DNA of 55,211 nt from Acutalibacteraceae bacterium (GTDB lineage: Bacteria; Bacillota; Clostridia; Oscillospirales; Acutalibacteraceae). The stretch covers positions 1 through 55,211 of the forward strand of contig JAZNWP010000048.1 of the NCBI GenBank assembly GCA_045593385.1, written 5' to 3'. Positions within the stretch are counted from its first letter, which is position 1; every line of letters starts with the position of its first letter. The notes under the pieces were generated by a model. That model was not told the DNA's origin. It saw only the letters and a program-made list of their open reading frames with translations, and made no database searches. Of the stretch, positions 19,048 to 53,586 are shown one piece after another. The position numbers and the translations under genes are program-made.

Positions 19048-19098
19048 GGGCTCACTTATGAATATTAAATAAATCATAAGTGAGCCCTTATTTTTTTT
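19046..19098. terminator. bidirectional rho-independent terminator at the convergence of the plus-strand late block and the minus-strand early block
   Basis: Perfect 16-bp inverted repeat aagggctcacttatga / tcataagtgagccctt with a T9 run on plus and an A-run (T-run on minus) on the other side. The TAA of minus gene 19097.. lies in the tail. Confidence 0.75.
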
Positions 19099-19747
19099 AC
19101 TCTCCTATATCAGGAATAACTTCCAATCCTTTTACTTTATTATAATAATCTTCAGCCTATCCATTGCCACCAAGACTATGATATAAGTCATAAAAAGCAA
19201 CAATTTGTTCCCAATCATTTTCAGTAATATATCCTTCTTTTAAATGAGTTCTACAAAGTTGAATAAATCTAAATTTATAAGATTCTCTAATTTTTGTTAA
19301 ATTGTATTCATGCTTTTCAGCTAAATCTTTTAAATGAGCATCAACTTCTTTTTTATCACAATCATGATAATCTTTAACGCTTTTGATTTCTTCTTTAAAT
19401 TTTTCTTCGTCTTCTTTAATGAGGTTTTCGACATTAGAAACATGATTATCAATAATCGATTTAATATTATTCATTTCATCCACTATTGGTTCTAATTCTT
19501 CAAGAATCATTTTTCGCTGAGTTCTTATCCTATCTTCTTCTAGTAGTCTTTCATATTCTTTCTTTTTTTCTTCTGCTTTCTTTTTTTCTTCAGCAATTTT
19601 TTCTTCTGCTATTTTTTTTGCTTGCTCTTCTTTTTCATTCATTTTTTTGTATAAATGCTTAATCCAAAGACCGGCAATAGTAGTTAAAATTGTAGTAATA
19701 ACTGCAATTACAATTTCTAATGTATAAGTTTTAAAGATTTCTTCCAT
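19097..19747 (-). CDS. membrane-anchored coiled-coil protein, 216 aa, 2 in-frame TAG near the C-terminus
   Basis: SD aggggag then ATG 19747. N-terminal TM LEIVIAVITTILTTIAGLWI, Lys/Glu-rich coiled coil. Track ORF stops at TAG 19157-19159 but the frame continues to TAA 19097-19099. Confidence 0.5.
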
Positions 19748-19776
19748 TTTTTTTCTCCCCTTTCTTTTGTTTTGTA

Positions 19777-19842
19777 AAATAAAAAAATCCCTTGAAAACT
19801 TCCATTCTAAATTAGATTGAAAGTTTATCAAGGGATTTTTAT
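19777..19842 (-). terminator. putative terminator (long-loop hairpin) for the RuvC-like gene
   Basis: aaatcccttga ... tcaagggattt 11-bp stem. On the minus strand it is followed by TTTTTTT. The loop is about 34 nt, so confidence is moderate. Confidence 0.35.
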
Positions 19843-20340
19843 TTAATCTGACCAGTCAAATGTATTATTCTGATCTAACTAATATTTTCCAATACAGAAA
19901 GAGTCTGCTTCATCTTCTGTACATTTTAATTCATAATTTTTTAATACATACTATTGAGCTAATTTTTTTTCTTGAGTTCTACCTTTTCCCGCAATTTTGA
20001 AATGAGCCTTCCATTTAATAGGTTGAATTACATAATATTTTATATTTAACTCAGTTAATAATTCATGAACTACTCCAAATGCTTCAGCAAGAATTTTAAA
20101 AGTTGTTATTCCTAATTCTTTATTACCATTAACATCTTGAAGTTGAATATCTTCAAACGCAACTTCATCAATATTATATTCTTGAATTAATTCAATAATT
20201 TTATTTCTTAACTATTCTAGTCTATCACCCAAATCATTTCCAACACAATCAAAATGACTTGTTTTTACATTTACTCCATCTTTAAATACTGAATATCCAG
20301 TAGTATGAGAAGATTGATCTAATGCTAATAAATTAGACAT
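19843..20340 (-). CDS. RuvC-like Holliday-junction resolvase, 165 aa, 3 in-frame TAG
   Basis: Absent from the ORF track because of TAGs. Frame is open from ATG 20340 to TAA 19843-19845. N-terminus MSNLLALDQSSHTTGYSVF (catalytic D plus TGY as in the RuvC LGIDPGxxxTGYGV motif). C-terminal DEADSFCIG acidic motif. Confidence 0.55.
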
Positions 20341-20875
20341 TAGTTGAACCAAATCCTCCGAAGCGTTCTCCTGTTGTAATGTCATCTTCAGTTACGCCAT
20401 AAGGAACGATAATTCCTTGACCAATTGCTTCTCCTTTTGGAATTTGAATATTAAATGGAGATAAATTATAAAGTTGAAGAAAAATTTCTCCTTCATTGTC
20501 TGGATTATTATAATAATCTGCGTCGATAATTCCTACCCCATTAGCGAGCATAATCCAATACTTTAGCGGAGAAGAACTACGAACACTAAGTTGAAGATAT
20601 GTTCCTGGGTCTAATTTACACTTCATGCCAGTAGAAACTAATGTAGGTTTATATTCAGTTTTCTTTGTAAAATCTCCCATATCTTTAAGAGTAAGATATT
20701 CATCATCTTCTATTTTTAACATTTGACTTGCTTCACCAGCAAGGTTAAAAATTGATGGAATTATATAATCTTCTGCGGCGACGAGGTCATATCCTGCTGA
20801 CTACCTAGTCTTACGGATCGGCATAACCAATTCCGCATCATTAGCATATCTACTTACTTTTTCAAATTTTGCCAT
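20333..20875 (-). CDS. dut: dUTP diphosphatase, 180 aa, 1 in-frame TAG
   Basis: Track ORF 20333..20722 extended upstream through TAG 20797-20799 to ATG 20875. Motifs SAGYDL, RSSSPLKY, GIIDADYYNNPDNEGEIF and GERFGGFGSTNV. Confidence 0.8.
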
Positions 20876-20877
20876 AA

Positions 20878-21117
20878 TTAACCCTCATACGAAATAGAGA
20901 CGATTCTATCTGGTTCTTTTTCGTCAGTAAATACTTTTGTAGCACTAACTACCTGATATTCTTCTACGATTTCGCCTTTCTGCTTAATATATTTAGTCTT
21001 ATAACTAAATGCCACTAAATCAAAAGTTGGATCATCAAGAAACTCTTGATGAAGATTTTCTACATCGTCTACTGTTGGAACTCTATAAGTGTCAACTGCT
21101 TTTAATAAATATTTCAT
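20878..21117 (-). CDS. hypothetical protein, 79 aa
   Basis: Intact ORF, translationally coupled to neighbours. Confidence 0.4.
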   Translation of the reverse strand: MKYLLKAVDTYRVPTVDDVENLHQEFLDDPTFDLVAFSYKTKYIKQKGEIVEEYQVVSATKVFTDEKEPDRIVSISYEG

Positions 21118-21386
21118 TTTTTTAATACCTCTACTTTAATATTATCTTTATTATAATTTTTTAATGAATAACTTAACACATCTTCTGCGACAGCTTGGCA
21201 AAAGACACTATTACCAGCGAGCACAACATCGCACAAAGATTTATTATAACATGTAGCACTAATGATTTCAGGGAGTTCATCCATTGAGGTAGTTGCTACA
21301 TAATCCATTTGATTTGTTTCAGAATCGACTATAAAAATTCGCTATTCTGCATCGAACATATGTAATTCACAAAATATTTTTTTCAT
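21114..21386 (-). CDS. hypothetical protein, 90 aa, 1 in-frame TAG
   Basis: Track ORF 21114..21308 extended upstream through TAG 21342-21344 to ATG 21386 with ggtaggtg SD. Confidence 0.35.
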
Positions 21387-21387
21387 T

Positions 21388-21876
21388 TTATTCACCTACC
21401 AGAACAATTCCACTATCATAAGGGAATAAGTATAAACAAGTTGGTTCACCGTCTTGGGGCTGAACCCAAATCTCAACAGCATCGCCAGCTTCAGTTAAAT
21501 CCATAGCTTTAATTAAGCCAACATTTAAACAGCAATCAAGAACATCTTCACCAAAATATTGAGGCTCAATAATCTTAAATACTGTGAAATAAGAAATTTC
21601 CTTACCATACAACATAAAATATTTATTATGGTAAGTTTTATATAAAGTCCAAATATCATACATTGCCTTATCAAAATCTTCAAGAATAGGCAATTGAGAA
21701 ATGATTTGTTTATTCATATCATATAAACCAAGCTCAAGATTTGAGCCTTCTATTTTAAGCTCTTTATATTCACCATTTTGATAAATCATAGTTTTTCCAT
21801 CTTCTGTCTAAACTATTTCACCGTCTTGTGGATTTAGAGACTTGGTATTTTTTATTTTAAATTTTTGATTAGTCAT
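21388..21876 (-). CDS. hypothetical protein, 162 aa, 1 in-frame TAG
   Basis: Track ORF 21388..21789 extended upstream through TAG 21808-21810 to ATG 21876 with SD aaaggaga. Confidence 0.4.
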
Positions 21877-21912
21877 ACTATTTCTCCTTTTTATTTCTTC
21901 ATATATAGTATA

Positions 21913-22413
21913 TCAAAAATATTTTTTTAAGTCAAGTATTCTTTGATTGCGGGAGCCACGCATAGAAAGTGTAATGTCTCGCTCAGCCTCTATATAAGGC
22001 CCGTCTATTAGAACGTCTGCGCGCCGCAAACTCTCAATGATAAAAGGATTTTTACTATCTAATAGTTCTTCTATTGTATAACCAGTCCAAATATATATTT
22101 TAGTATCTGGAACATAATATTTAACCTACTCTATTACTGTAAAAGTGAGTAGAGCATTTTCTTCGCATAATGGTTCTCCGCCCATAATACATAAATCTCT
22201 TTTAATATTTTGGGCAGTAAGACCATTAATTATTTCATTTAATGTTTCATCGGTAAATTCCAGTCCGCCATCAAAGCTCCAGGTTTCTGGATTGTGGCAA
22301 CCGGGGCATCTGTGCGGACACCCCTAAGTGAAAAAAGACACACACAGACCGGGCGCCGCACTTATATCATTTAAAATTAATCCACTATACTTCAAAGATT
22401 TTACTCCTTTCAT
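21913..22413 (-). CDS. nrdG: anaerobic ribonucleotide reductase activating protein (radical SAM), 166 aa, 2 in-frame TAG
   Basis: Not in the ORF track. Frame is open from ATG 22413 to TGA 21913-21915. Motifs SFFT-TAG-GCPHRCPGCHNPETW (radical-SAM CxxxCxxC) and ...KIYIWTGY. Lies 30 nt downstream of nrdD. Confidence 0.75.
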
Positions 22414-22443
22414 ATTAGCGTAGTTAATTGTAGTAAACTGTAT

Positions 22444-24669
22444 TTAAGAAAATTCACTATGCTTGATACGATGTTCAACCTCTGACTATTTTCCTTTGTT
22501 AAAATGTCTATAATCAGTTGTTAAATAACCAGTTACTCTGCGCAATTGTTGGATATTTTCACTTCCGCATTCAGGACAAGTATCATTGAATTCACCCTAA
22601 AAACCGCAATCAAGGCAAGAATCAATGGGGAAATTAAATGCCAAATAAGGAATATCCAATTCTTTAAAAGCATAATCAATAATTTGTTCTATTGCTTTAG
22701 TATTTTTTACAAAAGTAGAATCTAATTCAACATAAGTAATACAACCACCAGTAGGATATTTACAGAAAGGAGCCTCAATAGCTAACTTTTCAAAGATACC
22801 TATTTTCTACCATACAGGAACATGATGGCTATTGGTTAAGAATTCTTTATCAGTGACATTTGGAATAGAACCATATTGCTTGCGCAAAGCCTTAACCGCA
22901 CTATGACATAAGCCTTCGGCAGGAGTCGCATAACAAGAGAAATTTAAATTATGTCTTTCAGATGCTTCTTTGGCATATTCATTAATTCTTTTTACAACCT
23001 TTAAAGCAAATTCACGAACTTCTGGATCTGTATGATTTTTACCAAACAATGCTTGACACATTTCTGCAATTCCGATGTACCCCATAGCAAGAGTACCATG
23101 TTTAAGTGCTTCATAATTAGACACTCTACATTTTTGAGAATCCATCATAGTTCCATTTTGATACATAAATGGAGCTGCTTCTGGAGGTTGATTAACCATA
23201 ATATCAAAACGTTCTAATAATCCTTGTTCACATAATTGAAGCAATTCTTCAAATGCAATCCAAAAGCCGTTTAAATCAGGTTCGGTACGCTTACCCAGGC
23301 AGATTCCATATTCGATTCCTAATTTTGGAAGTATCATAGTATTAGGAACTAGATTACCTCTACCAACTCTTTTATAAGATTTTGAATGACGATCATATCC
23401 AATCATTGTCCTGCAACCCATTGTGCTGAATAGGGTGTCGATATCTTCTGGGTTCTCATTTGCCTAAGAATAATCGCAATTAACAAAATTGGGATAAATG
23501 CGTTTACTTAAAGATTCTAATGCTAGTTGTTTTAAATCATAGTTTGGATCTTCTGGATTGGCATTACAACCTTGTTTATATTGGAAAATACTAATAGGAA
23601 ATATTGGTGTTAAATGATGTTTTCCAATACCGGACAGAGAAGATTCAAGCATTTTACGAGAAACGAATTTTCCTTCTGGTGAAGTATCTCTACCAAAGTT
23701 GATAGATGTAAAGGGAACCTGTGAACCAGCTCTTGATTCTAATGTATTTAAATTATGATACATAGCTTCTCCTGCTTGTGTACCCTCTCTTTCTAACTGT
23801 TTAATAGCATAGTTATATGCTTTACCAAATATTTGTTCATGAGTTGCTAATTTTTTATTATCAATACAAATTTCTCCAAATGTTTTTTCAAAATCTATCA
23901 TTAAATCTTTGGCAGTTTTTTCATTATATTCACAAACATCTGTTAAATAATTTTTAATATATTTTTTAAAACTTCTCTTTACAAATGGTGCGAGATCATA
24001 ATCCAAGTGAATTGTTCCAACTCCGCCAAATTGAACCTGAGATTGACATTGAAAAATAACTGCGGTCTGCTGACAAGCACTACTAAACGAAGAAGGTGGA
24101 CGAATATCTCCATTTCTGGTAGAAAATCCATCTGTAAATAATTTTTTAAAATCTACTTGAAGACAATTGTGTTGACCAATATTTGTTTTTTCTAAATCAT
24201 GTTGATACAATAACATATCTCTATGAGCACTACTAATTCTTGGTGATAAAGTATAGTCAAGAGCGATTGTTTTTTGAAGGTCAGCGGAAGCTTCTTTTTC
24301 TCTTCCAGAAAAACTTTTTTCATCAACATTTGCGTTTGAATTTTCAACAGCGATAGCTTCAGTTCTTCTCATTACATTTTTTAATAAATTGCTACGACGT
24401 ATTCTTTCTTTATTGCGCTGGTCTCTATATAAAATATAAGATTTAGCAACTTCTGGATATTCACTTTTCATAAGTTGTTCTTCAACTAAATCTTGTATCT
24501 ATTCAACTGTAAGGTCTTTGCCCAATTGACCAATAGAATCCGCAATTTCTTCTGCGGTTTCAGTTTCATACACTGCTCCATAAGAACTAATCATTGCTTT
24601 ACTAATTGCATTTACAATTTTATCTGGATTAAATAATACTCTAGTTCCATCTCTTTTTATTACATACAT
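22444..24669 (-). CDS. nrdD: anaerobic ribonucleoside-triphosphate reductase, 741 aa, 5 in-frame TAG; merges track ORFs 22807..23421 and 23464..24471
   Basis: SD ggagg 7 nt before ATG 24669. N-terminal ATP-cone (MYVIKRDGTRVLFNPDKIVNAISKA). C-terminal Zn ribbon CLDCGF-TAG-GEFNDTCPECG and glycyl-radical motif RVTGYL. All pieces are in one frame separated only by TAG. TAA 22444-22446. Confidence 0.8.
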
Positions 24670-24705
24670 AAATTAACCTCCTTAATAAAAATACTATATT
24701 TTGTA

Positions 24706-24727
24706 TGAAGGGAAATTTCCCCTTACC
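24706..24727. other. perfect palindrome GGGAAATTTCCC (plus flanks); possible bidirectional terminator or operator
   Basis: aagGGGAAATTTCCCCtt immediately downstream of the nrdD start region. The tandem taatcaat x2 at 24741-24758 follows. Confidence 0.3.
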
Positions 24728-24756
24728 ATATTTGGAGTTTATGATTAATCAATTAA

Positions 24757-25323
24757 TCAATTTTGTCCTTGGGCGAATTGAGTCTCAGCCTAGCTCACAA
24801 TCTTTTTAGGGGCAGCTACTAACATAATTGCACTATCATTTTTGAGTTCAAAATAGTCAAATTCTATATTTTCAAAATCTTCGAAATCTGTTATCGCACG
24901 GCGGACAATTTCTTTTACATTGGGATTTTCTTCTCTATTTAATTGGCGCAGTAGGCGCTCTTTATCGGAAGTCCGCACCCATACAACAAAAACATTACAA
25001 GTTTTTAATTTTAACAAAGTTCTGACCGCGTTAGGACTAAATACCCCAATATTAATTTTATTTTCATCAAGAGCTTTTAATTCTGTTCCATATTGCCAGT
25101 TATTAAAAATTTGATAATCAATCATTTCATTATTATAAATTTTCTCAAAGAATTCTTCATCAGAATAGTAAAAATAATTAACTCTATCTATTTCTTTTTC
25201 TCTTTTTGGTCTACTTGTTGAAGTAATTATTTTATGTAAATCTGGATACTGTATTAAAGTTTCCTTTAATACAGTATCTTTCCCGCTACCAGATTCACCC
25301 ATAAGAGCAATGATATTATACAT
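24757..25323 (-). CDS. guanylate-kinase-like / dNMP kinase-like P-loop protein, 188 aa, 1 in-frame TAG
   Basis: P-loop GESGSGKDT and TSTSRPKREKEIDRVNYFYYSDEEF (guanylate kinase TTRxxRxGE..G.dY.F fold). Track ORF ends at TAG 24790. Frame continues to TGA 24757-24759. Confidence 0.55.
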
Positions 25324-28300
25324 CTTCTTCTACTCCTCCTTGATAACGAGCATCTTGAAGAATTAATTCTCCATTCATTAAAATCTCATTAATCTTATAT
25401 AATTGATGACCACCAGTAGATACATATTTCTTTGAGATGAAATCATCTCCTGAGCGAATACCGGTTACAACAATCATATTACCTCTATTAAACCAAGACT
25501 TTTCCACTATCTTCTTTGTGCCATCTGGCTGCCGCACAGAAATTTGCTTATCAAATAATGTAAAGTATTCTTTTCTAAATTTTACATTTACAACACCAGA
25601 AGGAGTTAACACGCTCACTGTGCTTTTAGTTTTATTCTTTGCGATACAAGTTCCGCAAATACGATTCAATTTAAATATATGAACTTCTTTTCCACCTTTT
25701 GAGAATGAATAATCAATTACTGGATCTTCTGGAAGGCTATAAAAATCTACAAAACCATATCTATCATTGTTAATATGTGCTAATTCATGTTCATGATAAT
25801 AAAAACATAATGCTTCCATTTCCCAAGATGACAAAGTTCCAGTTGCATATTTATTCCAATCTTCCATAAAGATTTCTTTGTTTAATTCATTAAGGATTTT
25901 ATCTTTTTCAAGAGCAATCCATTTGCGGAATACATCCATGTGCTTTTGATATACATTATCCCAAGTTTTAGTTCCAATAAACCAAGCGAGATTATCTGTC
26001 TCCATTAAATCATCAAGACTAAGTTCTTGTAAGAAGCTAATTGCTCTTGTATCCAATGTATATTTATCTTTATAACTATATTTATCAGCTTTTGTAATTG
26101 CTTTTAAATATCTATTAAATTCATAAACTCTGCGAGCAAGAATCTGTTCTTCTGTTTCTTCTGGAAGTAAGTTATGTTTAATTAAACCACCCATATTTTG
26201 AAGAGTTATTCTATTCTTTTTATCACAAGTTTCCCAGATATACCAAGTCATAACAAACTTTCTATCTTCCATTTCATCAAAGGCTCCACCTTTGATTAAT
26301 GAAATCATTGCCTGTTTTCCAGGTTTTACTTTATTTAAAAAATCTCTCGGTGAACTATATGGTCTATTAGCGATGATAGCCGCAACAACATCGTCTCCAA
26401 CATTAAGCATACCTTTGAGTCCAAAAAGTATCTGATTATTTTCGACGTCAGGAACAAATCCATAACTTGATTTATTAATGTTTGCCAAGCTAACTTTAAT
26501 TCCAGCACTAGTGATGTCACCGATTGCTTTTGCTATTTTTGCATAATCAGTTGATCCTCCTGCTTCTTCATCTGTTGCTCCACTATTTACAATAAGACAA
26601 GCAGTATTCCAATAAATAGGATTAAAATTAATGACAAAATAAATGGATTGCATACCAACAAATGAATATGGTAATGAGTGATTTAATGAGAACGCATATC
26701 CAAGCTGTGGAGCAATTGCGTTTTCCCAAAAATAATTTGCGACTTTAACATCATCAAATTGTCCATATACTTTTTCACGAAGTTCCGGGATTTTACTCAT
26801 TTGTTTCTTACCTACAATTTTACGTGCGCCGTTCGCTTCACCGAGCGTAAAGCCAGCTACATCCATAAGCAATTCCATCATTTGTTCCTGAATTGCACAA
26901 CAACCCCAATATTGGTCGCAATGTTTGTGCATGAGCTTGATCATTTCTTCGGTTAATCCAGCCTCGCGCATTTCCTTATCAAATACACCTAATCCATTTT
27001 TCTGAATACGAGCATATCTATCTTGCTGAGATTCTTTATCTTTTTCAGACATAAGTCTCATCATCGCGTTTGCCGCAGTCATTTCCATCGGATTCTGCGG
27101 TTTAAGTTTTTTTGCTATTGCTAATCCGACTCCGGTGTTGAACTGAAATACATCAAGAACATCGCCGGCCGCAAGATGATCCCAAATTCTTTGATCTGTT
27201 GTATCCATTACTTCTGGATGAATATACTTATTATATAAATCTCTTAATCCCATTTTCTCAATAATTTTATCTTCTACAAGAAGTTCAAAACATTTGATAA
27301 TCTTGTCTGAAATTTCAGTTACGAGGAAGTCATACTTTGTATCTCCTGCTGCTTCTGCTTTATGAAGATCATAACAAGTAATCAAATCTCCACTTGGAGT
27401 TCTCATAAAAGCCGCAGTTTCAAATGGGTCTTCACCATATAAGATAACACCAGATGCGTGAGAAGAACGCTTATTAACAAGTCCTTCGATTGACATAATA
27501 ATATCCAATAAACCTGGATAATTATTTACTTCTCTAATAAATGCACTTACAGGTTTTCTATCTTTTTCTTCATTTCCATAAACAACATCATTAATACTCC
27601 ACAAGAAACCTCTCTCTTGGGGAACCAATGAACTCATATATTGTGCGAGGTCGACATCGATTCCATCTGGATAATCCTCGCTTCTATAACCGCGGCAAGC
27701 CGTGAGTATAGCTGATTTTGTTCCTTCTGTTCCAAAAGTAGCTACCTGAATGAGTCCTAACTCTCCACGCTCTTGTCTAATTCTACGGAAGATCTCCGGT
27801 CTTTTAGATGGAGCGAGGTCGATGTCGATATCGGGCAATTCGGCTCTTTCTTTATTAAGGAAACGCCAGTAAGGTAGATTCCATCTGACTGGGTCTAATT
27901 GGGTAATACCCAAGAGATAGTTTGATAGAAATCCTGTGGCTGAACCTCGACCTGGTCCAACAATGCTGCCACACTCCCAGAATAAGTCAATATAGTGTTT
28001 AAAGGTATTAAAGTATGCGAATAAGCAGTCATCAAGTTTTTCTCCTATATCTTTAATAATATCGGCTTCTATTTCTAAACGATCCCAATAATTTATTTTA
28101 TTATGCAAATCTTTGTCGTGTAAGCTTTTAGCGCACTCAAATAACCAATATCTCTCTTGAATATTACCTTCTTCATAAAGTTCTTTTAATACTGGCCATT
28201 TTCCTCCAGAGAAATCCCAATCTACGTGTTTAATATATTCATAAATATCCCAATCACTATATTCTGGTAATTCAATTTTGGGAATCATTTGTTTTCTTTC

Positions 28301-29206: not shown

Positions 29207-29238
29207 TTTACACCCTCCTATTTTTATTCTTACATTAT

Positions 29239-39144: not shown

Positions 39145-39151
39145 TTACCTC

Positions 39152-43888: not shown

Positions 43889-44177
43889 ATTTTATTTTAT
43901 CCTCCAATGATAAGGTATATCCTTTTAAATGTCCAAATAAAAAACTATTTACAAAAACTTCTAATTCATCAATGTAGATTTCTACATCTGGACTTTTGTG
44001 CCTATAATCAAATACGTCTTTATAACTTATAAATTCAATATTTGTAATTCCATAAGAATACGCTTTCTGTTTCATCGCAAATGGATTAATACAAGCAATA
44101 ACCGCACCAGTCTATTCAGCTAATTCCATTAATTTTCCAGTTTTCCCAGTTCCTTTATCATCAATTATTCTATGCAT
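43881..44177 (-). CDS. hypothetical protein, 98 aa, 1 in-frame TAG (P-loop-like GTGKTGK)
   Basis: Track ORF 43881..44075 extended upstream through TAG to ATG 44177. Confidence 0.35.
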
Positions 44178-44403
44178 TTTCACATTTCTCCTTGTATTCT
44201 TTTACGAATTGGGTTAAATTTTCTTGTAAAGATTTGCTAAAATCTTCAATATTATCCGCTTCAAAAATTCCATTTAATGAATATGAACCAACATAGTTAT
44301 TATAATTTTCACAAAATAATACTTGACTTATTTTTTGAATTTGGTCATTCGCTTCATTTTCATTTTTTGCTTCTTGAATTATTGCCGAAAAACTAAACAT
44401 CAT
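44161..44403 (-). CDS. hypothetical protein, 80 aa, 1 in-frame TAG near the C-terminus
   Basis: Track ORF ends at TAG 44170. True stop TGA 44161-63. Confidence 0.35.
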
Positions 44404-44414
44404 AATGGCTCTCC

Positions 44415-45425: not shown

Positions 45426-45479
45426 AGTAAAAAAAATAAGGGGTAAGAATTATTTTCTTACCCCTTTGATAAAATCAAA

Positions 45480-45755
45480 TTAGTCAGCAGCTTCTTCAGT
45501 TGCGTCTGGATCGAAGCTCATACCTGCAGGAGTGAGGCTCAAAAATTTAACCTGCTTATGTGTTCCATCTTCAAGTTCGATTTCAGCAAGAGTACGAACG
45601 CCAAGACCCTTTCTTTGAATAGCAGAAGTGAAAATACCATCAACAGACTTCTTTTCAAGACCGAGAGCAGCAGCAACATCAGCAGCAGTTACATTTTCAC
45701 CATTGATTTCCTTCAAATAATTTAAAACCTTTTTAGAATTTTCTTTCATAGCCAT
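45480..45755 (-). CDS. winged-helix DNA-binding protein, 91 aa
   Basis: VTAADVAAALGLEKKSVDGIFTSAIQRKGLGVRTLAE is an HTH plus wing. Driven by a consensus promoter. Confidence 0.45.
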   Translation of the reverse strand: MAMKENSKKVLNYLKEINGENVTAADVAAALGLEKKSVDGIFTSAIQRKGLGVRTLAEIELEDGTHKQVKFLSLTPAGMSFDPDATEEAAD

Positions 45756-45817
45756 AACTTTTTTTCTCCTTTTAATTAAATATTTTTTTTTATTTTTTTA
45801 AGCTTAGCTTATGTAAA

Positions 45818-45847
45818 TATTATATCAAAAAATTTTTGTTTTGTCAA
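45818..45847 (-). promoter_or_regulatory. consensus sigma70 promoter TTGACA-N17-TATAAT
   Basis: Reverse complement reads ttgaca aaacaaaaattttttga tataat, 60-90 nt upstream of the 45755 start. AT-rich UP-like region upstream. Confidence 0.6.
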
Positions 45848-45865
45848 GAAATTTTTTAATTTTTT

Positions 45866-46060
45866 TTACTTATTTTTTTCAAGTATTTCCATTACGAGTT
45901 CATCTATAATTACCATATCATCCAAGTTGGCAACATTGCTAGAAATTCTCATAATTTCCTACTCTGCTTTTGCGACTTTCTCTTTGTCATCGCTGGTCTG
46001 AATAATGATTTCACACTTTGCAATTTTTTGTGCGAGATTTTTTAATTCTTTTCTTTTCAT
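45866..46060 (-). CDS. small hypothetical protein, 64 aa, 1 in-frame TAG
   Basis: Not in the track. ATG 46060 with taaggatg SD. TAG 45941-43. TAA 45866-68. Confidence 0.35.
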
Positions 46061-46093
46061 TTAAAAATTTTCATCCTTAATCTTTACAATTTT

Positions 46094-46122
46094 ATTATAC
46101 AAAAATTTTTTTAATTTGTCAA
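46094..46122 (-). promoter_or_regulatory. consensus sigma70 promoter TTGACA-N17-TATAAT
   Basis: Reverse complement reads ttgaca aattaaaaaaatttttg tataat. Abuts the ligA stop codon. Confidence 0.55.
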
Positions 46123-48114
46123 TTAAGTTATTCCAAAAGTCTCGATAAATTCTTCTTCTGACAAGATTGGAATTCCTAATGACTTTGCACTATTATTTTT
46201 ACTTGATGTAGAATTGACATCATTATTTATTAAGTAATGAGTATTTTTTGAAACGGACCCAGTTACTTTCCCACCAAGAGCTTCAATTTTAGATTTTAGT
46301 TCATCTCTATTTTTGAAGCGATTAACTTTTCCAGTTATAACAAATATTTTATCAACAATTTTATTATTTGTAATTTCTTCTGTTTCAACTGGTTTTACAA
46401 AATTTATATAATTATTTACTATAAATTTTGCTTCATCGTAATTAAATTTAGAAATACTTGAATGCATTTCCACACCAAAATTTGGTAATTCATAAAACTT
46501 ATATTTATTTTCAACCGCTGAAATAAAATTTTCCCAAGTTTTAAAATGATTTGCCAGATCTTTTGATGCAGTTGTACCAATCAACGGAATACCTAAGGCC
46601 GCAATGAACTGATGAAGTTCACAGGTTTTTCCTTCCTCAATAGCAGATAGAATTTTTTCAACCGAGCGCATTCCAAATCCAGGTTTCTTAACCCAATCAT
46701 TTTTATGAGAAGAAAGAGTGAATATATCGGTGTAAGTTTCAATCCAACCCCACTCAAGAAGTTTTTCTAAAGTTGCTTTAGATATGCCTTTTATATCTAA
46801 ACCCTTCTTTCCACAGAAATGATCAAGTCTATTAATAAACTTTCCAGGGCAATTTGGATTGGTACATTCAAGCACAGTTGTTCCAAAAGCACCAGAATCA
46901 GATTTCTGTCGTGTTTCTCCATCACAAACAGGACAATATTTAGGTATTGTAAAATAATCTAATCTCGGATAATTATCTGCCTCTTGATAATGTTCGCTAT
47001 TACTAATTTGAGGAATAATCATATTCGCCTTATAAACTTCTATTTTTTGACCATAAAAAGGTTTTGTGTTTAAAGTTTTTCCCATAATACTAATATTATG
47101 AAGACTCGCTCGATTTACTTCAGTGCCATCAATATTCACAGGAGTAAATACAGCAACTGGAGTTAAGGTTCCTGTTCTTCCCATCGTCCATTCAATATCT
47201 AAAAGTGAAGTTAAAAATACATCATCATAAAATTTATATGCTAAAGCATTTTTAAAATGATGTTCAGTTTCTCCTAATGAGCGACCATATTCGCAATCAT
47301 TAAATTTGAAAACTGCTCCATCTATTGGATAAGAACATTCTTCTGCCATCCATTTTACATCTGAAATAAAAGATTCAACATGACTAACTTCTTTCATTGT
47401 TGCTCTAATAAAAGGAACAACAGTAAAAGACATATCCCTAAGATTTCTTAACTTTTCAGATAAAAAATCTATTTCTTGATAATCATCATAAAATGGAGTA
47501 ATAACATCCCAAGCTACGAAAGTTAGTTTTCTTTTAGAACATTCTTTTGAATCTAAAAGCCTAATACTTCCTGAAGCAAAATTCCTTGGTGTTGAATATA
47601 TTCCACTAAAATTTTCAAAATCTTTATAAGTGCAAATAATTTCTCCATCAATTGTTAATTTTTTAAGATAAGGAATTTTCTTTGGGACTGATGGAAGAAC
47701 TTTTACATTATGTAAAATATTTTCTCCAACAAGTCCATTACCTCTCGTTTCTGCGGAAACTAACTCTCCATTTTCATAAGTAAGAGAACAAGTTAATCCA
47801 TCCATTTTACACATAACAAGCATTTCTTCATTTCGTGAAAACCTAAGAACATCTTCTACAAGCTTGGTTTTTTCAAGAGATAACATTTTATGATCGTGAG
47901 TTTTTTTCTCTAACTCATTAACAAGTTCATAACTTATTGATTGAGTTGGAGAATTACTCAAAATGAGACCTGTTTTATTTTCTAAATCTTGTAATTTAAA
48001 ATATAAATCATCCCATTCCTTATCACTAATTAAAGGATTTCCTTCATCATATGCTTTCGTATATTCATTCAAGCATTTTACTAAATGAATTATCTCTCCA
48101 TAGAGTTTAATCAT
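46123..48114 (-). CDS. ligA: NAD+-dependent DNA ligase, 663 aa, no TAG
   Basis: Adenylation motif CKMDGLT. OB fold. Cys4 zinc finger CPVCDGE...CTNPNCPGK. HhH region. C-terminal BRCT (KIFVITGKVNRFKNRDELKSKIEALGGKV). Confidence 0.85.
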   Translation of the reverse strand: MIKLYGEIIHLVKCLNEYTKAYDEGNPLISDKEWDDLYFKLQDLENKTGLILSNSPTQSISYELVNELEKKTHDHKMLSLEKTKLVEDVLRFSRNEEMLVMCKMDGLTCSLTYENGELVSAETRGNGLVGENILHNVKVLPSVPKKIPYLKKLTIDGEIICTYKDFENFSGIYSTPRNFASGSIRLLDSKECSKRKLTFVAWDVITPFYDDYQEIDFLSEKLRNLRDMSFTVVPFIRATMKEVSHVESFISDVKWMAEECSYPIDGAVFKFNDCEYGRSLGETEHHFKNALAYKFYDDVFLTSLLDIEWTMGRTGTLTPVAVFTPVNIDGTEVNRASLHNISIMGKTLNTKPFYGQKIEVYKANMIIPQISNSEHYQEADNYPRLDYFTIPKYCPVCDGETRQKSDSGAFGTTVLECTNPNCPGKFINRLDHFCGKKGLDIKGISKATLEKLLEWGWIETYTDIFTLSSHKNDWVKKPGFGMRSVEKILSAIEEGKTCELHQFIAALGIPLIGTTASKDLANHFKTWENFISAVENKYKFYELPNFGVEMHSSISKFNYDEAKFIVNNYINFVKPVETEEITNNKIVDKIFVITGKVNRFKNRDELKSKIEALGGKVTGSVSKNTHYLINNDVNSTSSKNNSAKSLGIPILSEEEFIETFGIT

Positions 48115-48139
48115 TTTTATTCTCCTTAATTACAAATAT

Positions 48140-48168
48140 ATTATAATAAATTTTTTTTATTTTGTCAA
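48140..48168 (-). promoter_or_regulatory. consensus sigma70 promoter TTGACA-N17-TATAAT for ligA
   Basis: Reverse complement reads ttgaca aaataaaaaaaatttat tataat. Confidence 0.6.
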
Positions 48169-48191
48169 CTATATGCTGCTAGTAAGCAAGG

Positions 48192-50567
48192 TTAAACCTT
48201 GCTTACAGACAACACTTTATTATTTTTTATTACGATATTTCCTGCAGATGCTCTACTTAATACTGGAATTTCAGAAGCTTCTATACAAATACTTGATTTA
48301 TCACCAAGAATTAATACGCTATCTGCATCCTCAACAAGGGTCGCCGCACTTACTCTTCCAGTTGACTCAGTTGGTTTATAGCAAGCAAGTCCCTTACCAG
48401 CTCTCTTTTGGACAGGAATTTCAGATAAATCAATTCTCTTCGCTACACCATTTGTAGCAAATATAGCTAACTTATCAGTCACATTACGAACTGGAATTGC
48501 TGAAACGATATAGTCATCATCTGCAAGATTAATACCTTTAATACCGGTTGTAGTTCTTGATGTGGGTCCAACTTCTTTAGAATCAAATCTAATACATATA
48601 CCTTTTGAAGTGATTAAGATTAATTGTTCATCTTTTACAAGAGATACTGCGGTAAGCTCGTCGCCTTCTCGAAGGTTGATTGCGGCAAGTCCGGTCTTTT
48701 TCTTCGTTTTTACATATTCTTCAAGAGATGTCTTTTTAACAAGACCATTCTTAGTTACAAATAATACATATTGAGCATCGGTATCTCTATAAATTGAATA
48801 GATAACTGAAGGTTCTTCTTCAACTTCCATATTAACCAATGACTTTACCGATTGACCTTTAGAAACATTTGTTCCTACTGGAACATCATTTACCAAAAGT
48901 CTATACATTTTTCCTTTATTTGAGAAAATCATCAAGGAATCTATTGTATTTGTGCGGATAACTGCTTGAGTTATATCATCCTGCGTCTTTATGCCTTTAC
49001 CATTCCTCTTCTGGGTGCGGAAGCTCGATGAGGGGATTCTTTTAACGAGACCACCTTCTGTCATTACCACAACACATTTTTCTGGTTCAACGAATTCAAT
49101 TTCTTTTTCTTCTTTGGTTGAAACTACTTGAGTTATAGATGAACGACGAGCATCACCGTATATTTTCTTTAATGAGTTGAAAGTATTTATCATTTCTGGA
49201 ATTGGATTAGATAAAATTGTATTTAATCTTTCTAATTCTTTAACTAAATCAGCTAATTCTTTTTCAATTTCTACTTTTTCTAATTTAGCTAATTTTGCTA
49301 ATTTCATGTCAAGAATTGCTTTTGCTTGTTCTTCATTCAACTCATAAGCAGCCATAAGTTTCGTTTTAGCGGCTGCCGCAGATTCACTACTCTTAATCAT
49401 TGCAATAACATTATCAATATCTTCAAGAGCTTTCAATAAACCTTCTAAAATATTGATTCTATGAGCAATTTTATCTGCTTCATATTTTGTTTTTCTTAAT
49501 AAAACATCTTTTTGATGCTCTACATATATTTCTAAAAGTTGTTTAATATTTAACAATCGAGGTTTCTTATTTACAAGTGCTACTTGGTTGAAACTATAAG
49601 TATCTTCCAACCTTGTGAGCTTAAATAATTTTGCAATAATCGGCTCAGTAGGGACTCCTTTGGCAACCTCTATAACAAAGCGGACGCCATCTTTATTGCT
49701 TTCATCTCTGATTGCCGTGATGCCTTCCATCTTTCCTTCTTCACATAATTTGTCTATTTCTTGAACAAGGTCTTCTTTTGAGACTTTATATGGAATGGAG
49801 GAAAATACAATACTATCTCCTCGCTTGTCAGATTCAATGGTATATTCACCTCTAATTCTTGCCCTGCCTTTTCCAGTTAAGTAAGCAGTAGGCAATTCAT
49901 CTTTATTAATTATCAATCCGCCAGTAGGAAAATCTGGACCAGAAATATAATTAAGTAATTCTTTTACTTCACAATTTGGGTTTTCTACTAAAAACACTGC
50001 TGCATCCATAACTTCAGTTAAATTATGAGGGGCAAAACTACAAGCCATAGCAACCGCAATTCCAGAAGTTCCATTAACAATTAAATTAGGGATTCTACTT
50101 GTCAAATAAACTGGTTCATTTTCTACGTCAGTATAAGCTAATTGCCAATCAACAGTATTCTTTCTTATGTCTGCAAGCATCTCTTCGCCTATTTTAGATA
50201 ACTTACATTCAGTATATCTGTAGGCTGCAGGTTCATCTCCATCTCTACTGCCATTATTTCCATGAAACGTGATTAATGGATATCTCATATTCCAAGGCTG
50301 GCTTAACCAACATAATGCTCCATATATACTTGAATCTCCGTGCGGATGGAAGCGGCTCATTGTATCTCCAACCGGCTGAGCGCATTTTACAAACTTTTTA
50401 TTATTCATTTGCCCTTTATCAAACATATCCCAAAGAATTCTTCTTGCTACTGGTTTTAAACCATCTTCTGCTGAAGGGATTGCTCGATCAGTTATAACGC
50501 TTAAACTATAATCAAGGAAGCTTTGTTCCACTTCCCCGATAATCGGGGTCTGAATTATGTCTCCCAT
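48192..50567 (-). CDS. gyrA: type IIA topoisomerase subunit A (GyrA/ParC/T4 gp52-like), 791 aa, no TAG
   Basis: RRILWDM...PHGD. Active-site region AAYRYTECKL. C-terminal beta-pinwheel repeats. Confidence 0.85.
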   Translation of the reverse strand: MGDIIQTPIIGEVEQSFLDYSLSVITDRAIPSAEDGLKPVARRILWDMFDKGQMNNKKFVKCAQPVGDTMSRFHPHGDSSIYGALCWLSQPWNMRYPLITFHGNNGSRDGDEPAAYRYTECKLSKIGEEMLADIRKNTVDWQLAYTDVENEPVYLTSRIPNLIVNGTSGIAVAMACSFAPHNLTEVMDAAVFLVENPNCEVKELLNYISGPDFPTGGLIINKDELPTAYLTGKGRARIRGEYTIESDKRGDSIVFSSIPYKVSKEDLVQEIDKLCEEGKMEGITAIRDESNKDGVRFVIEVAKGVPTEPIIAKLFKLTRLEDTYSFNQVALVNKKPRLLNIKQLLEIYVEHQKDVLLRKTKYEADKIAHRINILEGLLKALEDIDNVIAMIKSSESAAAAKTKLMAAYELNEEQAKAILDMKLAKLAKLEKVEIEKELADLVKELERLNTILSNPIPEMINTFNSLKKIYGDARRSSITQVVSTKEEKEIEFVEPEKCVVVMTEGGLVKRIPSSSFRTQKRNGKGIKTQDDITQAVIRTNTIDSLMIFSNKGKMYRLLVNDVPVGTNVSKGQSVKSLVNMEVEEEPSVIYSIYRDTDAQYVLFVTKNGLVKKTSLEEYVKTKKKTGLAAINLREGDELTAVSLVKDEQLILITSKGICIRFDSKEVGPTSRTTTGIKGINLADDDYIVSAIPVRNVTDKLAIFATNGVAKRIDLSEIPVQKRAGKGLACYKPTESTGRVSAATLVEDADSVLILGDKSSICIEASEIPVLSRASAGNIVIKNNKVLSVSKV

Positions 50568-50688
50568 AAGGGACCTCCTTTATATCTACAAATTTATCAA
50601 AATATTCATTATTAATTGTTGGAATATAATTATTTATAATTTCTTCTATTAAATCATATATTTTAACTGAATTATATTTTAAACTAAA

Positions 50689-50802
50689 CTAATTATTTTT
50701 ATATTCTACTTTTCCATCTATTATATCTAAAAGCCTTTTTTCTTGTAAATGTTTTTCAAGTATCATAGAAATTTTTTCTTTTGAATTAGCTAAATGAGGC
50801 AT
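50689..50802 (-). CDS. small hypothetical protein (37 aa to TAG; about 96 aa if TAG is read through to TGA 50512-14, overlapping the gyrA start)
   Basis: SD ggaggaag then ATG 50802 (MPHLANSKEK...). Frame meets TAG at 50689-91. Confidence 0.25.
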   Translation of the reverse strand: MPHLANSKEKISMILEKHLQEKRLLDIIDGKVEYKNN

Positions 50803-51262
50803 ATGCTTCTTCCTCCGTAATATATCCAGTAGCAAGTTGATCTGCAAGTTCATTCCAATCGTCACCAGCATGACCTTTTATTTTTCTCAATTCAATTCGA
50901 TATCCTTCTTTATAGTAATCATAATATGCTTGGATTAAATCTAGATTTTCAGGAATTTTTTTATCGCTTTTTATCCAACCACGTCTAGCCCAACCAAACA
51001 TCCAATCGTTAAGAGTATTTACACAATATGCAGAGTCGCTATATACAACTGGCGGCTGACCCCAATCTTCACATTTAATTCCAAAATTAAACATTACATA
51101 TAATATTGCTTTTAATTCTTCTCGATTATTTGTCGTATTTTCGGACCTTTTGGAGCGGACGAACTGGACACTTCCATTTTCATCCACTCCTACTATTCCA
51201 TATCCACCTTTAGCATTGGCTTTTCCATTTCCAATACAAGAACCATCAGTATAAAAAATCAT
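50786..51262 (-). CDS. rnhA: ribonuclease HI, 158 aa, no TAG
   Basis: FYTDGSCIGNG...GGYGIV, TNNREEL, VVYSDSAYCVN, GHAGDDWNELADQLA match the RNase H catalytic DEDD motifs. Confidence 0.8.
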   Translation of the reverse strand: MIFYTDGSCIGNGKANAKGGYGIVGVDENGSVQFVRSKRSENTTNNREELKAILYVMFNFGIKCEDWGQPPVVYSDSAYCVNTLNDWMFGWARRGWIKSDKKIPENLDLIQAYYDYYKEGYRIELRKIKGHAGDDWNELADQLATGYITEEEAYASFS

Positions 51263-51656
51263 TAAGACTAAACTACCTTTCTGTTTTATTTAAATAAGTG
51301 TCTTTTTCTAAAAAAGGTGCTTCTTCTTTTGGTTTAAAAATAGTTATATTTTTAACAACATTACTATTAACTAATAAAATATCATTATTTGGAAAAACTT
51401 TTTTTAATTCTTGATATAAAATTTTATATTCACCCATATCTATATCATCAGAAATTTGACACATAATAACATCATTGGGGTTTGTTTTAACAATCTAAAC
51501 AGGAATTCCATCTGACCAAACATCAACAGTCCCGTTTAGAGAAGAATCTGGATATATCGGTGAAGACGAATATTTGCTAAAATCAATTCCATCAAGCGTT
51601 GAAGATAAATATTTACTAAAATCAATTCCATCAATTGAATTATTTATATTACACAT
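51246..51656 (-). CDS. hypothetical protein, 136 aa, with a 13-aa tandem repeat (IDGIDFSKYLSS x2) and 2 in-frame TAG
   Basis: ATG 51656 lies 2 nt after the gyrB stop. Track ORF 51273..51464 is its C-terminal part. Reads through TAG 51273-75 to TGA 51246-48. Confidence 0.35.
51562..51639. repeat. 39-bp tandem direct repeat x2 (in-frame, coding)
   Basis: gaagacgaatatttgctaaaatcaattccatcaagcgtt / gaagataaatatttactaaaatcaattccatcaattgaa. Confidence 0.6.
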
Positions 51657-53586
51657 CTACATTTGCCCTCCAAGCATTATTTTCAATGAACTTTTTTCTT
51701 GGGTCAACACTTTCACCCATAAGACTCATAAATGTTTTTGCTACTTCGGTAGCATCTTCCATTGTAATTTGTTTTAAAGTTCTTGTTTCTTTTGACATAA
51801 CAGTTTCTGCCATTTCTTCAGGATCCATTTCACCAAGACCCTTCATTCGACCAAGCTCAAAATTCTTTGAAGTAGACTTTCTAAATGCTTCAAGTGCGGC
51901 ATCATCTTTTAAATATTGAATCTTAGTTCCCATAGTAGCTTTATAAAGAGGAGGCACTGCCGCATATACATAACCCTTTTCCAGTAATTCCGGACAGAAC
52001 TTCCAGATAAATGTGAGGAAGAGGACGCGTATGTGGCTGCCATCAACGTCAGCGTCTGCGGTGATAATAAACTTACCATAACGAAGTTTTGTTTCATCAA
52101 CGATAATTTTATTGTCTTTCACTTCTAAGCCAAAAGCATCAACCATACCACTTATTTCTTTATTTTGAAGAGCTTTATGTAAATCACATTTCAAAACATT
52201 AAGTGGCTTACCACGAAGCTGAAACACTGCTTGTGTTAATCTGTCTCTCGCTTCTTTTGTTGATCCAGCAGCAGATTTACCCTCTACAATAAATACTTCA
52301 CAGTTATATCTATCTTTCGAGCTAGCATCTGCAAGAACATCTGGCATAATTACTCTGCGCTTAGCATCGGCTTTGCGCACAGTTTCCTTAGCCTTTTTTG
52401 CCTTTTCCCTTGCCGCTCGAGCCAAAAGTGCTTTATCTACAATAGCCTTAGCATCTTTTGGATTTGCGTCAAGCCAAACTTTTATTTCCTTAGATACTAA
52501 TCTTTGGACTGCCGTTCTTGCTTCGCTACTGGAAAGAACATCTTTTGTCTGACCAGAGAAAACTGGGTCTGGCATAATAAATGAAAGAACAAGAACAAGT
52601 CCTTCTTTTAATTCTTCGCCAGTGATATTAGCATCTTTTTCTTTTAATAATTTATTATCTCTTGCGTAATCGTTAATTGTGCTTGTAAGCGCAGTTCTGA
52701 AACCGGTTAAGTGAGTTCCCGCGCTATTTGGAATTGAATTGGTATATAATTTATAAGTATCAGTATAATTATCATTATACTGCATAGCAAGTTTTACTCC
52801 AATTCTATCTTCCATATTTTCAGTATAAAATACTGATGTTAATTTTGTTTTGTCTTTATTTAAATCATTAATATAATCTTTAATACCATTTTGAGAAGTA
52901 ATTATTTCTTTTGATTTATCTTCAAATTGAAGTGAAAAAATCAATCCTGGAGACAAATAAGCTAATTCTTGAATTTGCTTTTTTAAAGCATTATAATCAA
53001 GAGAGATACCTTCTTTAAAAATCGATATATCTGGCTTAAAAGATATACAAGTCCCAGAAACTGTTTTATCAATTACACCATTTAAGCCTAAAAGCGGTTC
53101 TTCTTTGTAGCTAATTAATTCACCTTTTTTAAATTCGGCAGTTGCTTTTTTGCCATTTCGAGCAGAAACAACTTTAAATATTTCTGATAAAGCATTAGTC
53201 GCTTTTGCACCTACACCATTCATACCACCAGACGTATTATATCCTGCTTTTCCATCACTATCGAATTTAGCACCGGTATGTAATTTGGTATAAACATTAA
53301 CCAAAGTTTCACTTCCATCTTCAGCTTTGCCGAAAGGAACGCCACGGCCATTATCTCTAATAGTTATAATATCATCTTTAACATAAATTTCGCACTCTGT
53401 GCAATGTCCATTCAGATATTCATCAACAGCATTTGATATAATTTCGAGGGTGATGTGCCTTACACCTTCTGGTCCAGTTGAACCGATATACATACCCGCA
53501 CGAAGTCTAATTGCTTCAATACCCTCTAAGGTCTTAATTTGATTTACGCCATACTCAGCATTATTTACGTTGTTTGGTATTTCCAT
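51649..53586 (-). CDS. gyrB: type IIA topoisomerase subunit B (GyrB/ParE/T4 gp39+60-like), 645 aa, no TAG
   Basis: GHKL ATPase (EIISNAVDE, GRGVPFG). TOPRIM EVFIVEGKSAAGS. PLxGK. C-terminal tail. Confidence 0.85.
   Translation of the reverse strand: MEIPNNVNNAEYGVNQIKTLEGIEAIRLRAGMYIGSTGPEGVRHITLEIISNAVDEYLNGHCTECEIYVKDDIITIRDNGRGVPFGKAEDGSETLVNVYTKLHTGAKFDSDGKAGYNTSGGMNGVGAKATNALSEIFKVVSARNGKKATAEFKKGELISYKEEPLLGLNGVIDKTVSGTCISFKPDISIFKEGISLDYNALKKQIQELAYLSPGLIFSLQFEDKSKEIITSQNGIKDYINDLNKDKTKLTSVFYTENMEDRIGVKLAMQYNDNYTDTYKLYTNSIPNSAGTHLTGFRTALTSTINDYARDNKLLKEKDANITGEELKEGLVLVLSFIMPDPVFSGQTKDVLSSSEARTAVQRLVSKEIKVWLDANPKDAKAIVDKALLARAAREKAKKAKETVRKADAKRRVIMPDVLADASSKDRYNCEVFIVEGKSAAGSTKEARDRLTQAVFQLRGKPLNVLKCDLHKALQNKEISGMVDAFGLEVKDNKIIVDETKLRYGKFIITADADVDGSHIRVLFLTFIWKFCPELLEKGYVYAAVPPLYKATMGTKIQYLKDDAALEAFRKSTSKNFELGRMKGLGEMDPEEMAETVMSKETRTLKQITMEDATEVAKTFMSLMGESVDPRKKFIENNAWRANVDV

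Follow-up and report, generated by a model that had tools for sequence, protein, structure and literature searches.

Reassignment of a stop codon to an amino acid has been described in several groups of gut phages. In the crAss-like, Agate, Garnet, Amethyst, Topaz and other recoded phages analyzed by Borges et al. (bioRxiv 10.1101/2021.08.26.457843), TAG or TGA encodes an amino acid, and the recoded stop is abundant in the structural genes, lysis genes and homing endonucleases but absent from the replication machinery. In the model proposed for these phages, replication proceeds under the standard code, and a phage-encoded suppressor tRNA gates the late translation of genes that carry the recoded stop. 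In the crAss-like phages, stop reassignment was reported to be limited to late genes and thus to a part of the genome, with a code switch at short phylogenetic distance and with suppressor tRNAs (Yutin et al., PMC7886860). Here, we analyze a 55,211-bp stretch of phage DNA, contig JAZNWP010000048.1 of the assembly GCA_045593385.1 (Acutalibacteraceae bacterium), referred to below as the window. The codon TAG is decoded as glutamine in this phage, and its six core replication genes, encoding DnaE, LigA, GyrA, GyrB, DnaB, and DnaG, do not contain a single in-frame TAG, whereas TAG accounts for 18% of the glutamine sites in the remaining genes of the same block. Both the phenomenon and its interpretation are already published, and the window is a new, well-behaved example.

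The window resembles the phages of Borges et al. in the reading of a stop codon as an amino acid and in the combination of stop-rich structural genes, lysis genes and homing endonucleases with a stop-free replication machinery. The estimated genome size of about 190 kb falls within the range reported for the large clades among the named recoded groups (Lak, Jade, Sapphire, Agate, Garnet, Amethyst, Topaz and crAss). Unlike in the phages of Borges et al., the TAG-free and TAG-bearing genes are mixed gene by gene along one strand and share predicted operons instead of forming separate blocks, the holin gene is TAG-free, and the suppressor tRNAs found in relatives share the promoter class of early genes. 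Compared with the crAss-like phages, the window belongs to another lineage with a replisome of DnaE, gyrase and LigA, no crAss hallmark genes were seen in it, and its host is probably a member of Bacillota rather than Bacteroidota. The phage phAss-1 ('Phassvirus'), according to excerpts of its description (PMC10607447), also uses TAG for glutamine and has multiple tRNA-Sup(CTA), a DNA polymerase III alpha and a genome of about 136 kb; the same excerpts report no family-level analysis of TAG avoidance. We rejected phAss-1 as a close relative, since the best DnaE match among GenBank phages is only 40% identical, which places the window in a lineage without a close relative there. The dual-coded genomes described with Mgcod (bioRxiv 10.1101/2022.06.29.495998) likewise have one part in an alternative code and a remainder readable under the standard one; however, Mgcod models contiguous blocks, whereas the mosaic in the window is graded and has single-gene resolution. 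The window and its relatives represent a quantitatively clean, clade-wide case of avoidance of a recoded stop by the replisome that is maintained by selection. Modest additions are the mosaic at the level of single genes inside operons, the promoter class common to suppressor tRNAs and TAG-free genes, and an effect of operon position.

The window has a GC content of 26-39% and consists of two convergent gene blocks, a plus-strand block (1..19047) for tail-fibre-like, BspA/LRR, Peptidase_G2 and holin proteins, and a minus-strand block (19097..55211) for replication and nucleotide metabolism; neither the large terminase subunit TerL nor the major capsid protein (MCP) was found within it. The genes were annotated by Pfam and PHROG scans, for which TAG was written as X or Q in the protein queries, and all named families were upheld. 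Relatives were collected by scanning IMG/VR with GyrA and DnaE, which yielded 78 loci on contigs of mostly 20-200 kb, and no relatives were obtained in a step to the left that used the tail-fibre protein 1066..2583. One related contig of 192 kb has GyrA at both ends, suggesting a complete phage genome of about 190 kb. YorL of phage SPbeta shares 40% identity with DnaE, and related contigs with 69-70% GyrA identity occur in metagenome-assembled genome (MAG) bins labelled Bacillota and 'Tenericutes'. These bin labels are weak evidence on the host, which is probably a member of Bacillota.

Reading through TAG raises the coding density of the window from 68.1% under the standard code to 90.7%. The standard code fragments many genes, and the use of TAA and TGA as the only stops fuses the pieces into long open reading frames (ORFs); gene calling in such genomes needs TAG as a sense codon, and the standard code miscalls a third of the window. 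For instance, the anaerobic ribonucleotide reductase NrdD (22444..24669, minus strand, 741 aa) matches positions 2-562 of the 562-position Pfam profile NRDD when its five TAGs are read through, the full-length match to this enzyme is obtained only with read-through, and the alignment to the solved anaerobic ribonucleotide reductases in PDB extends beyond the last TAG. These structural alignments are silent on the inserted amino acid because the TAGs fall at variable positions. The identity of the codon is given by the orthologs: at TAG positions at which window and ortholog differ, the partner residue is glutamine in 173 of 407 aligned cases, a 15-fold enrichment, and at the codon level TAG is exchanged with CAA and CAG; thus TAG is a glutamine codon here. 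As a stop it is nearly absent, since the 58 called genes in the window end in TAA (45) or TGA (13), TAG is the first stop after the ortholog in nine of about 1000 cases in relatives, and the relatives without in-frame TAG likewise have no TAG stops. The core replication genes, in which TAG is neither a sense codon nor a stop, are therefore read identically under both codes.

All six core genes are located on the minus strand. They encode the DNA polymerase III alpha subunit DnaE (25316..29206; 1296 aa, 37 Gln codons; Pfam domains DNA_pol3_alpha, PHP, finger and HHH_6), the NAD-dependent DNA ligase LigA (46123..48114; 663 aa), the gyrase subunits GyrA (48192..50567; 791 aa) and GyrB (51649..53586; 645 aa) and the helicase DnaB (37597..39144; 515 aa), each recognized by Pfam, and a DnaG-type primase (36179..37279; 366 aa; phrog_47, E=2.4e-35). 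Together they have no TAG in 4,276 codons and 103 Gln codons, versus 52 TAGs in 7,175 codons and 284 Gln sites in the rest of the minus-strand block (Fisher test, P=4.8e-11 per codon and P=3.6e-8 per Gln site), and none of 200,000 multinomial simulations matched the observed codon mass in TAG-free genes. The two gene sets are equal in off-frame TAG density (14.19 versus 14.17 per kb) and in GC content at third codon positions (GC3; 0.212 versus 0.207), and thus there is no compositional or foreign-origin signal in the core. Besides the six core genes, ten genes of the block are TAG-free, and the Poisson expectation is 11.2.

The initial annotation had listed these six genes together with rnhA and folA as TAG-free, and all eight zero counts were reproduced. 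The latter two genes, encoding RNase H (50786..51262, minus strand, 158 aa) and DHFR (42301..42795, minus strand, 164 aa), both recognized by Pfam, are nevertheless uninformative, as zero TAG is expected in each by chance in about 30% of cases (P0=0.32 and 0.30, respectively). Equally confirmed were the counts in the TAG-bearing genes of the same strand, namely five in nrdD, two in nrdG, three in the gene for a RuvC-like resolvase (19843..20385; 180 aa; Pfam DUF3882, RuvC), and nine in the gene for a protein with transmembrane (TM), coiled-coil and GIY-YIG regions (44415..45425; 336 aa). The nine TAGs all fall into codons 35-162, being confined to the coiled-coil half and absent from the nuclease domain. 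Two statements had to be corrected. The RecD/Dda-like helicase (30049..31233, minus strand, 394 aa; Pfam AAA_30, UvrD_C_2) was said to be TAG-free but has one TAG at codon 7: the orthologs begin with M(I/V)LTxKQEEGL, which places the start at the ATG 31233, and the window TAG sits precisely at the conserved Gln. The alternative TTG start, preceded by AGGAGG 5 nt upstream and giving a 384-aa protein, is overturned by the same N-termini and is internal. The maximum per gene in the window is 19 TAGs and not the 25 ascribed to structural genes; it is reached by the largest late-block gene (4097..9997, plus strand, 1966 aa). A 791-aa late protein has seven TAGs, and the holin (15491..15889, plus strand, 132 aa; phrog_13712, E=1e-34) has none. 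Other replication and recombination genes of the minus-strand block also contain TAG, including the RecJ-like exonuclease (33976..35766, minus strand, 596 aa; Pfam DHH, RecJ_OB) and the AAA_24 ATPase with two each, and Dam, ThyA and dUTPase with one each.

The avoidance of TAG in the core is conserved among the relatives. All orthologs of the core genes contain 25 TAGs in 132,057 codons (0.19 per 1000), versus 749 in 178,639 codons (4.2 per 1000) in other orthologous genes; for the eight relatives with the heaviest recoding, the respective values are 1.28 and 12.7 per 1000. Expressed as a share of Gln sites, the TAG load is a gradient over gene families and is not binary. It is zero in GyrA (28,962 codons over 37 loci) and LigA (19,593 codons; 0 of 226 Gln sites over 17 distinct sequences), 0.4% in DnaE (3 of 671) and 0.6% in GyrB (2 of 310), followed at 1-4% by ThyA, RNase H (1 of 68), the primase (5 of 247), dUTPase, DHFR, DnaB and NrdD; in most NrdD orthologs there is no TAG. 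DnaB is the leakiest core family, with TAG at 11 of 328 Gln sites and up to six TAGs in one locus (L028). The helicase, AAA_24, NrdG and the holin (10 of 92) have TAG at 4-11% of Gln sites, Gmk and the TAG-rich RecJ family (58 of 377) at 14-15%, and small late-block proteins, TM-GIY-YIG (105 of 368), g31237 and the most TAG-rich family, the RuvC-like resolvase (55 of 157), at 26-35%. At conserved Gln sites, CAA and CAG have been interchanged in 39.3% of cases in the core and in 42.8% in other genes, while the Gln-to-TAG changes number nine and 125, respectively; the change to TAG is ten-fold rarer in core genes. Since the synonymous turnover is equal in both sets, the depletion of TAG in the core is due to selection; this rules out that time or mutational opportunity was insufficient, and with it a recent horizontal acquisition.

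The core genes are predicted to be located behind strong promoters of the host type, consistent with recognition by sigma-70/sigma-A and, in part, with an extended -10 element. An early-type cassette TTGACT-N17-(TG)TATAAT (29239..29267, minus strand) lies 33 nt upstream of DnaE, and 10 of 13 distinct DnaE orthologs have an upstream promoter with a score of at least 11/12. A perfect sigma-70 consensus TTGACA-17-TATAAT (48140..48168, minus strand) precedes LigA by 26 nt, and an 11/12 sigma-70-type promoter (50720..50749, minus strand) precedes GyrA by 153 nt; the position of the latter is not kept in relatives, in which the promoter belongs to RNase H. GyrB follows the small gene g54414 and a GIY-YIG homing endonuclease gene (HEG) in a unit with a cassette TTGATT-N17-(TG)TATAAT upstream (54694..54722, minus strand). 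Another early cassette (39846..39874, minus strand), which follows a terminator at 39902..39870, heads the unit g39128-DnaB-g37284-DnaG-g35820-RecJ-lysozyme and is retained as a 10/12 match with TG in nine of nine distinct orthologous upstream regions. These sites are far in excess of chance: the window has three perfect TTGACA-17-TATAAT sites versus a simulated mean of 0.17, and four cassettes of the form TTGAYT-N14-16-TGnTATAAT with an A/T-rich spacer, all on the minus strand, versus a simulated mean of 0.01. The four cassettes precede DnaE, the g54414-HEG-GyrB unit, a winged helix-turn-helix (wHTH) unit and the DnaB/primase unit by 33-40 nt; the cassette is conserved upstream of orthologs and occurs in dozens of copies in relatives, always on the strand of the early block. 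Five intergenic sites score at least 11/12, again all on the minus strand; they precede DnaE, LigA, GyrA and two small genes by 26-153 nt. No early-type promoter site was detected in the late-block intergenic gaps of the window, and no shared late-promoter motif was established from six such gaps. In two of the late gaps (3947..4096 and 12331..12430), a terminator-like hairpin is directly followed by ATATAATAAA without a -35 element; this may be a candidate late-promoter motif, represented by too few instances.

The TAG load is also related to the position of a gene in the predicted operons. Within the window, the genes directly behind an early promoter contain no or hardly any TAG, and the TAG-bearing genes lie farther downstream; among the first genes, DnaE, LigA, GyrA, g45480, wHTH and g32170 have no TAG. 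Among 668 distinct genes of the window and its relatives, first genes contain 1.0 TAG per 1000 codons versus 2.7-4.1 at later ranks, and after removal of the six core families TAG still occupies 7.0% of Gln sites in first genes versus about 13% in the others (odds ratio 0.51, P=2.8e-6). As the sequences are related and the promoters predicted, we regard this putative position effect as a lead and not as proof. In one predicted unit, DnaE is followed by Gmk, NrdD, NrdG and further genes through to RuvC. TAG-bearing and TAG-free genes share such predicted operons, and therefore TAG content does not give an early/late transcription split. A strong terminator hairpin (45466..45438) lies 12 nt before the start of the TM-GIY-YIG gene, which, with its nine TAGs, appears to be doubly insulated from the upstream early promoter.

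A suppressor tRNA was to be located and its promoter class determined, as proposed in the initial annotation. Neither ARAGORN nor Rfam detected any tRNA in the window, and no tRNA was found in the 78 GyrA/DnaE loci or in the first two rightward steps from them (the first 137 related loci). A third rightward step and an exact-DNA anchor on tRNA-Lys reached a tRNA cluster in close relatives (84% GyrA identity), which contains at least 10 tRNAs, including two tandem tRNAs with the anticodon CTA on the strand of the replication genes (L153 1154..1303 and L152 4043..4192). The pair is located about 45 kb upstream of GyrA, which is equivalent to about 41 kb past the right end of the window. The early cassette, TTGACT-17-TGATATAAT, is found about 150 nt upstream of the pair on the same strand, and thus the suppressor tRNA of the relatives shares with the TAG-free genes a host-type promoter class that is presumably early.

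Several other features were noted around this cluster. The T-arms in related phages are too variable for a specific generic tRNA pattern. Between the promoter and the first suppressor tRNA (L153 1040..1150) there are two pieces resembling tRNA halves, in the order T-arm with a 3' acceptor ending in CCA and 5' acceptor with D-arm, which could represent a processing element or else a tRNA that is split, permuted or degraded. A ROOL RNA (Rfam RF03087, 263 bits, E=7e-60, cut at the locus end) is encoded beside the tRNA array (L152 7982..8394, minus strand), a weak OLE-like match of 53 bits is located at L152 2050..2137, and Rfam gave no match for the GC-rich spacers of about 400 nt that separate the tRNAs. 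From the cluster to GyrB, the genes of the relatives (L137 2074..9998; L081 and L079 1..10000) are nearly all TAG-free. By sequence motifs read by eye, they include a sigma-70-family factor, a Thg1-like protein, an RNA ligase with an N-terminal tRNA-binding domain, a GatB/YqeY-domain protein and an NAD-salvage set (Sir2-like, NadE-like, NMNAT-like and NAMPT-like). The YqeY and tRNA-handling genes could bear on the charging of tRNA(CTA) with glutamine in hosts without glutaminyl-tRNA synthetase, and the NAD-salvage genes fit the NAD-dependent ligase.

To explain these observations, we follow Borges et al. and Yutin et al. and propose, with a probability of roughly 60%, that the TAG-free core comprises the genes translated under the standard code of the host before tRNA(CTA) builds up. 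A phage of about 190 kb that decodes TAG as glutamine in a probable Bacillota host would keep DnaE, LigA, GyrA and GyrB, and less strictly DnaB and DnaG, 'TAG-null', such that the same product is made with or without amber suppression. The unmodified host RNA polymerase would transcribe these genes from strong sigma-A-type promoters, and their products would be needed in the first minutes, while the host release factor 1 (RF1) still terminates at TAG and the phage tRNA(CTA), although driven by the same promoter class, has not yet accumulated. Products that are needed later or would be harmful early, such as the resolvase, homing-type nucleases, RecJ, and tail and lysis-module proteins, would tolerate or gain TAG, and the outcome would be a TAG load graded gene by gene instead of two clean blocks. 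The temporal order of these events and the competition with RF1 as the selective agent are what we infer from the genomic pattern. That suppression becomes efficient is indicated by the late 1966-aa protein with its 19 TAGs.

The initial annotation had explained the pattern by suppression that becomes available only after the start of infection. This part agrees with the conserved avoidance of TAG, the host-type promoters and the tRNA(CTA) of the clade, whereas, by the predicted operons, TAG content does not sort the genes into an early and a late class. Its description of recoding as a lytic-phase switch is weakened by the TAG-free holin and fits poorly with the graded load and the shared operons; since the tRNA has the early promoter class, any 'switch' would be a lag in tRNA accumulation and not a late-promoter event. 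Several observations weigh against the proposed explanation itself. The TAG-bearing genes NrdD (5), Gmk, NrdG, RecJ and AAA_24 (2 each) are apparently co-transcribed with TAG-free genes, and the holin of the window is TAG-free. The shared early promoter class of the suppressor tRNA means that the suppression-free interval could be very short, and the tRNA is known from relatives, its presence in this genome being deduced from them. The constraint is strong but not absolute, as DnaB carries TAGs and DnaE, DnaG and GyrB occasional single TAGs in some relatives. Furthermore, the promoters are predictions from consensus matches only, and the TAG counts over the relatives come from phylogenetically non-independent sequences.

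The main rival explanation, which we consider possible though clearly less probable, invokes efficiency without timing. Suppression would never be complete, RF1 would compete throughout infection, and TAG would be purged wherever truncation or low yield is costliest, that is, from large, multi-domain, stoichiometric replisome enzymes, irrespective of the order of expression. The gradient over families instead of two classes agrees with this explanation, which would also accommodate both the sharing of predicted operons and promoter class by TAG-free and TAG-bearing genes, with a suppressor tRNA that is early-driven too, and the existence of TAG-poor late-block genes (the holin, g16883 and g17655). 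However, the late proteins of 1966 aa with 19 TAGs and of 791 aa with seven demand very efficient late suppression, length alone does not predict avoidance, and the promoter-proximal bias fits timing or polarity more naturally.

Avoidance of polarity is another rival explanation: an unsuppressed promoter-proximal TAG would uncouple translation from transcription and provoke Rho-type polarity on downstream genes, and purging would act mainly on the genes at the heads of operons, by coincidence those of the replisome. The TAG-free state of DnaE, LigA, GyrA, g45480, wHTH and g32170 as first genes and the lower load of non-core first genes agree with it. We consider it improbable as the general cause, since GyrB, DnaB and DnaG lack TAG although they occupy operon ranks 2-4, GyrA has none even in relatives in which it is not promoter-proximal, and gene identity has a 10-20 fold effect versus an approximately two-fold effect of position; a polarity component is possible but would be too small to explain the effect of gene identity.

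Recent acquisition of the replisome genes from a standard-code bacterium or phage, too recent for TAG to have appeared, is effectively refuted: the genes are of bacterial type and DnaE resembles YorL, but the six genes keep their synteny in relatives as distant as 46-50% identity, match their neighbors in GC3 and off-frame TAG, have as high a synonymous Gln turnover as other genes, never end in TAG, and have bacterial GyrA matches of 29-38% identity (in one contig scan tuned to close relatives), the 69-70% matches being MAG-bin contigs. Chance or composition, by which scarce Gln codons or local base composition would make TAG-free genes likely, fits the small rnhA and folA, TAG-free at about the chance rate, and could be suspected for LigA with its just eight Gln codons, but is refuted for the six large genes by the persistence of the signal after normalization by Gln sites, the equal off-frame TAG density and conservation over 78 loci.

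As a tentative and rather speculative extension of the proposal on delayed suppression, the TAG load might act as a translational delay line for each gene inside the early operons. The replisome genes and the suppressor tRNAs would be fired together by one host-type promoter class, and a gene would be 'on' once charged tRNA(CTA) carries ribosomes through its number of TAGs: zero in DnaE and gyrase, 1-5 in nucleotide metabolism, and 3-12 in the resolvase and nucleases. To this the promoter-proximal bias would contribute further. If true, such a graded timer, operating without extra transcription factors, would take the place of the two-state early/late code switch described so far.

The GIY-YIG HEG (53565..54326, minus strand, 253 aa), which has one TAG at a Gln conserved in the related locus L007, lies between GyrB and a small ORF (54414..54656) whose beginning duplicates the GyrB N-terminus, MSIDYGVKDIKTLEGIEAIRLRPG versus EYGVNQIKTLEGIEAIRLRAG in GyrB. 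L007 contains a counterpart of the arrangement 53565..54656 (5407..8487), and relatives without the HEG (L001 and L003) have a single GyrB with the start MSDYGVKDIK. Judged by this duplication, the region 53565..54656 resembles the trace left by a mobile HEG cassette that came with its own GyrB 5' end. The DnaE match in five other loci (L062, L068, L075, L078 and L074) covers 1.0-1.2 kb more DNA than in the window, which suggests intein or intron/HEG insertions.

Some relatives differ in the extent of recoding. Five loci (L055, L057, L037, L033 and L025; contigs 3300024272_001728 and 3300028454_000371) with about 72% protein identity to the window have almost no in-frame TAG in the region and no TAG stops (in L055, 0 of 22 genes), and their 816-aa tail-like protein also has no TAG. 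This looks like a TAG-depleted state beside the recoded lineages. Over the clade, the TAG load climbs as GC content drops, from light at 0.38-0.40 to heavy at 0.29-0.31. Within the late block of the window, a GC-rich island (16000..18100; 0.36-0.42 versus about 0.27 in its surroundings) encodes two small Gln-rich proteins (16163..16582 and 16601..16855), which have 28-39 TAGs per 1000 codons in relatives, and beside them two TAG-poor, uncharacterized proteins (16883..17641, phrog_16490; 17655..18086, phrog_20016). At the opposite end, 54732..55211 encodes the TAG-free C-terminal 159 aa of a formate-tetrahydrofolate ligase (Pfam FTHFS, E=3.5e-46) that runs past the window end. Relatives have other genes at this position; in the window, FTHFS together with DHFR and ThyA points to a phage-encoded folate/thymidylate metabolism.

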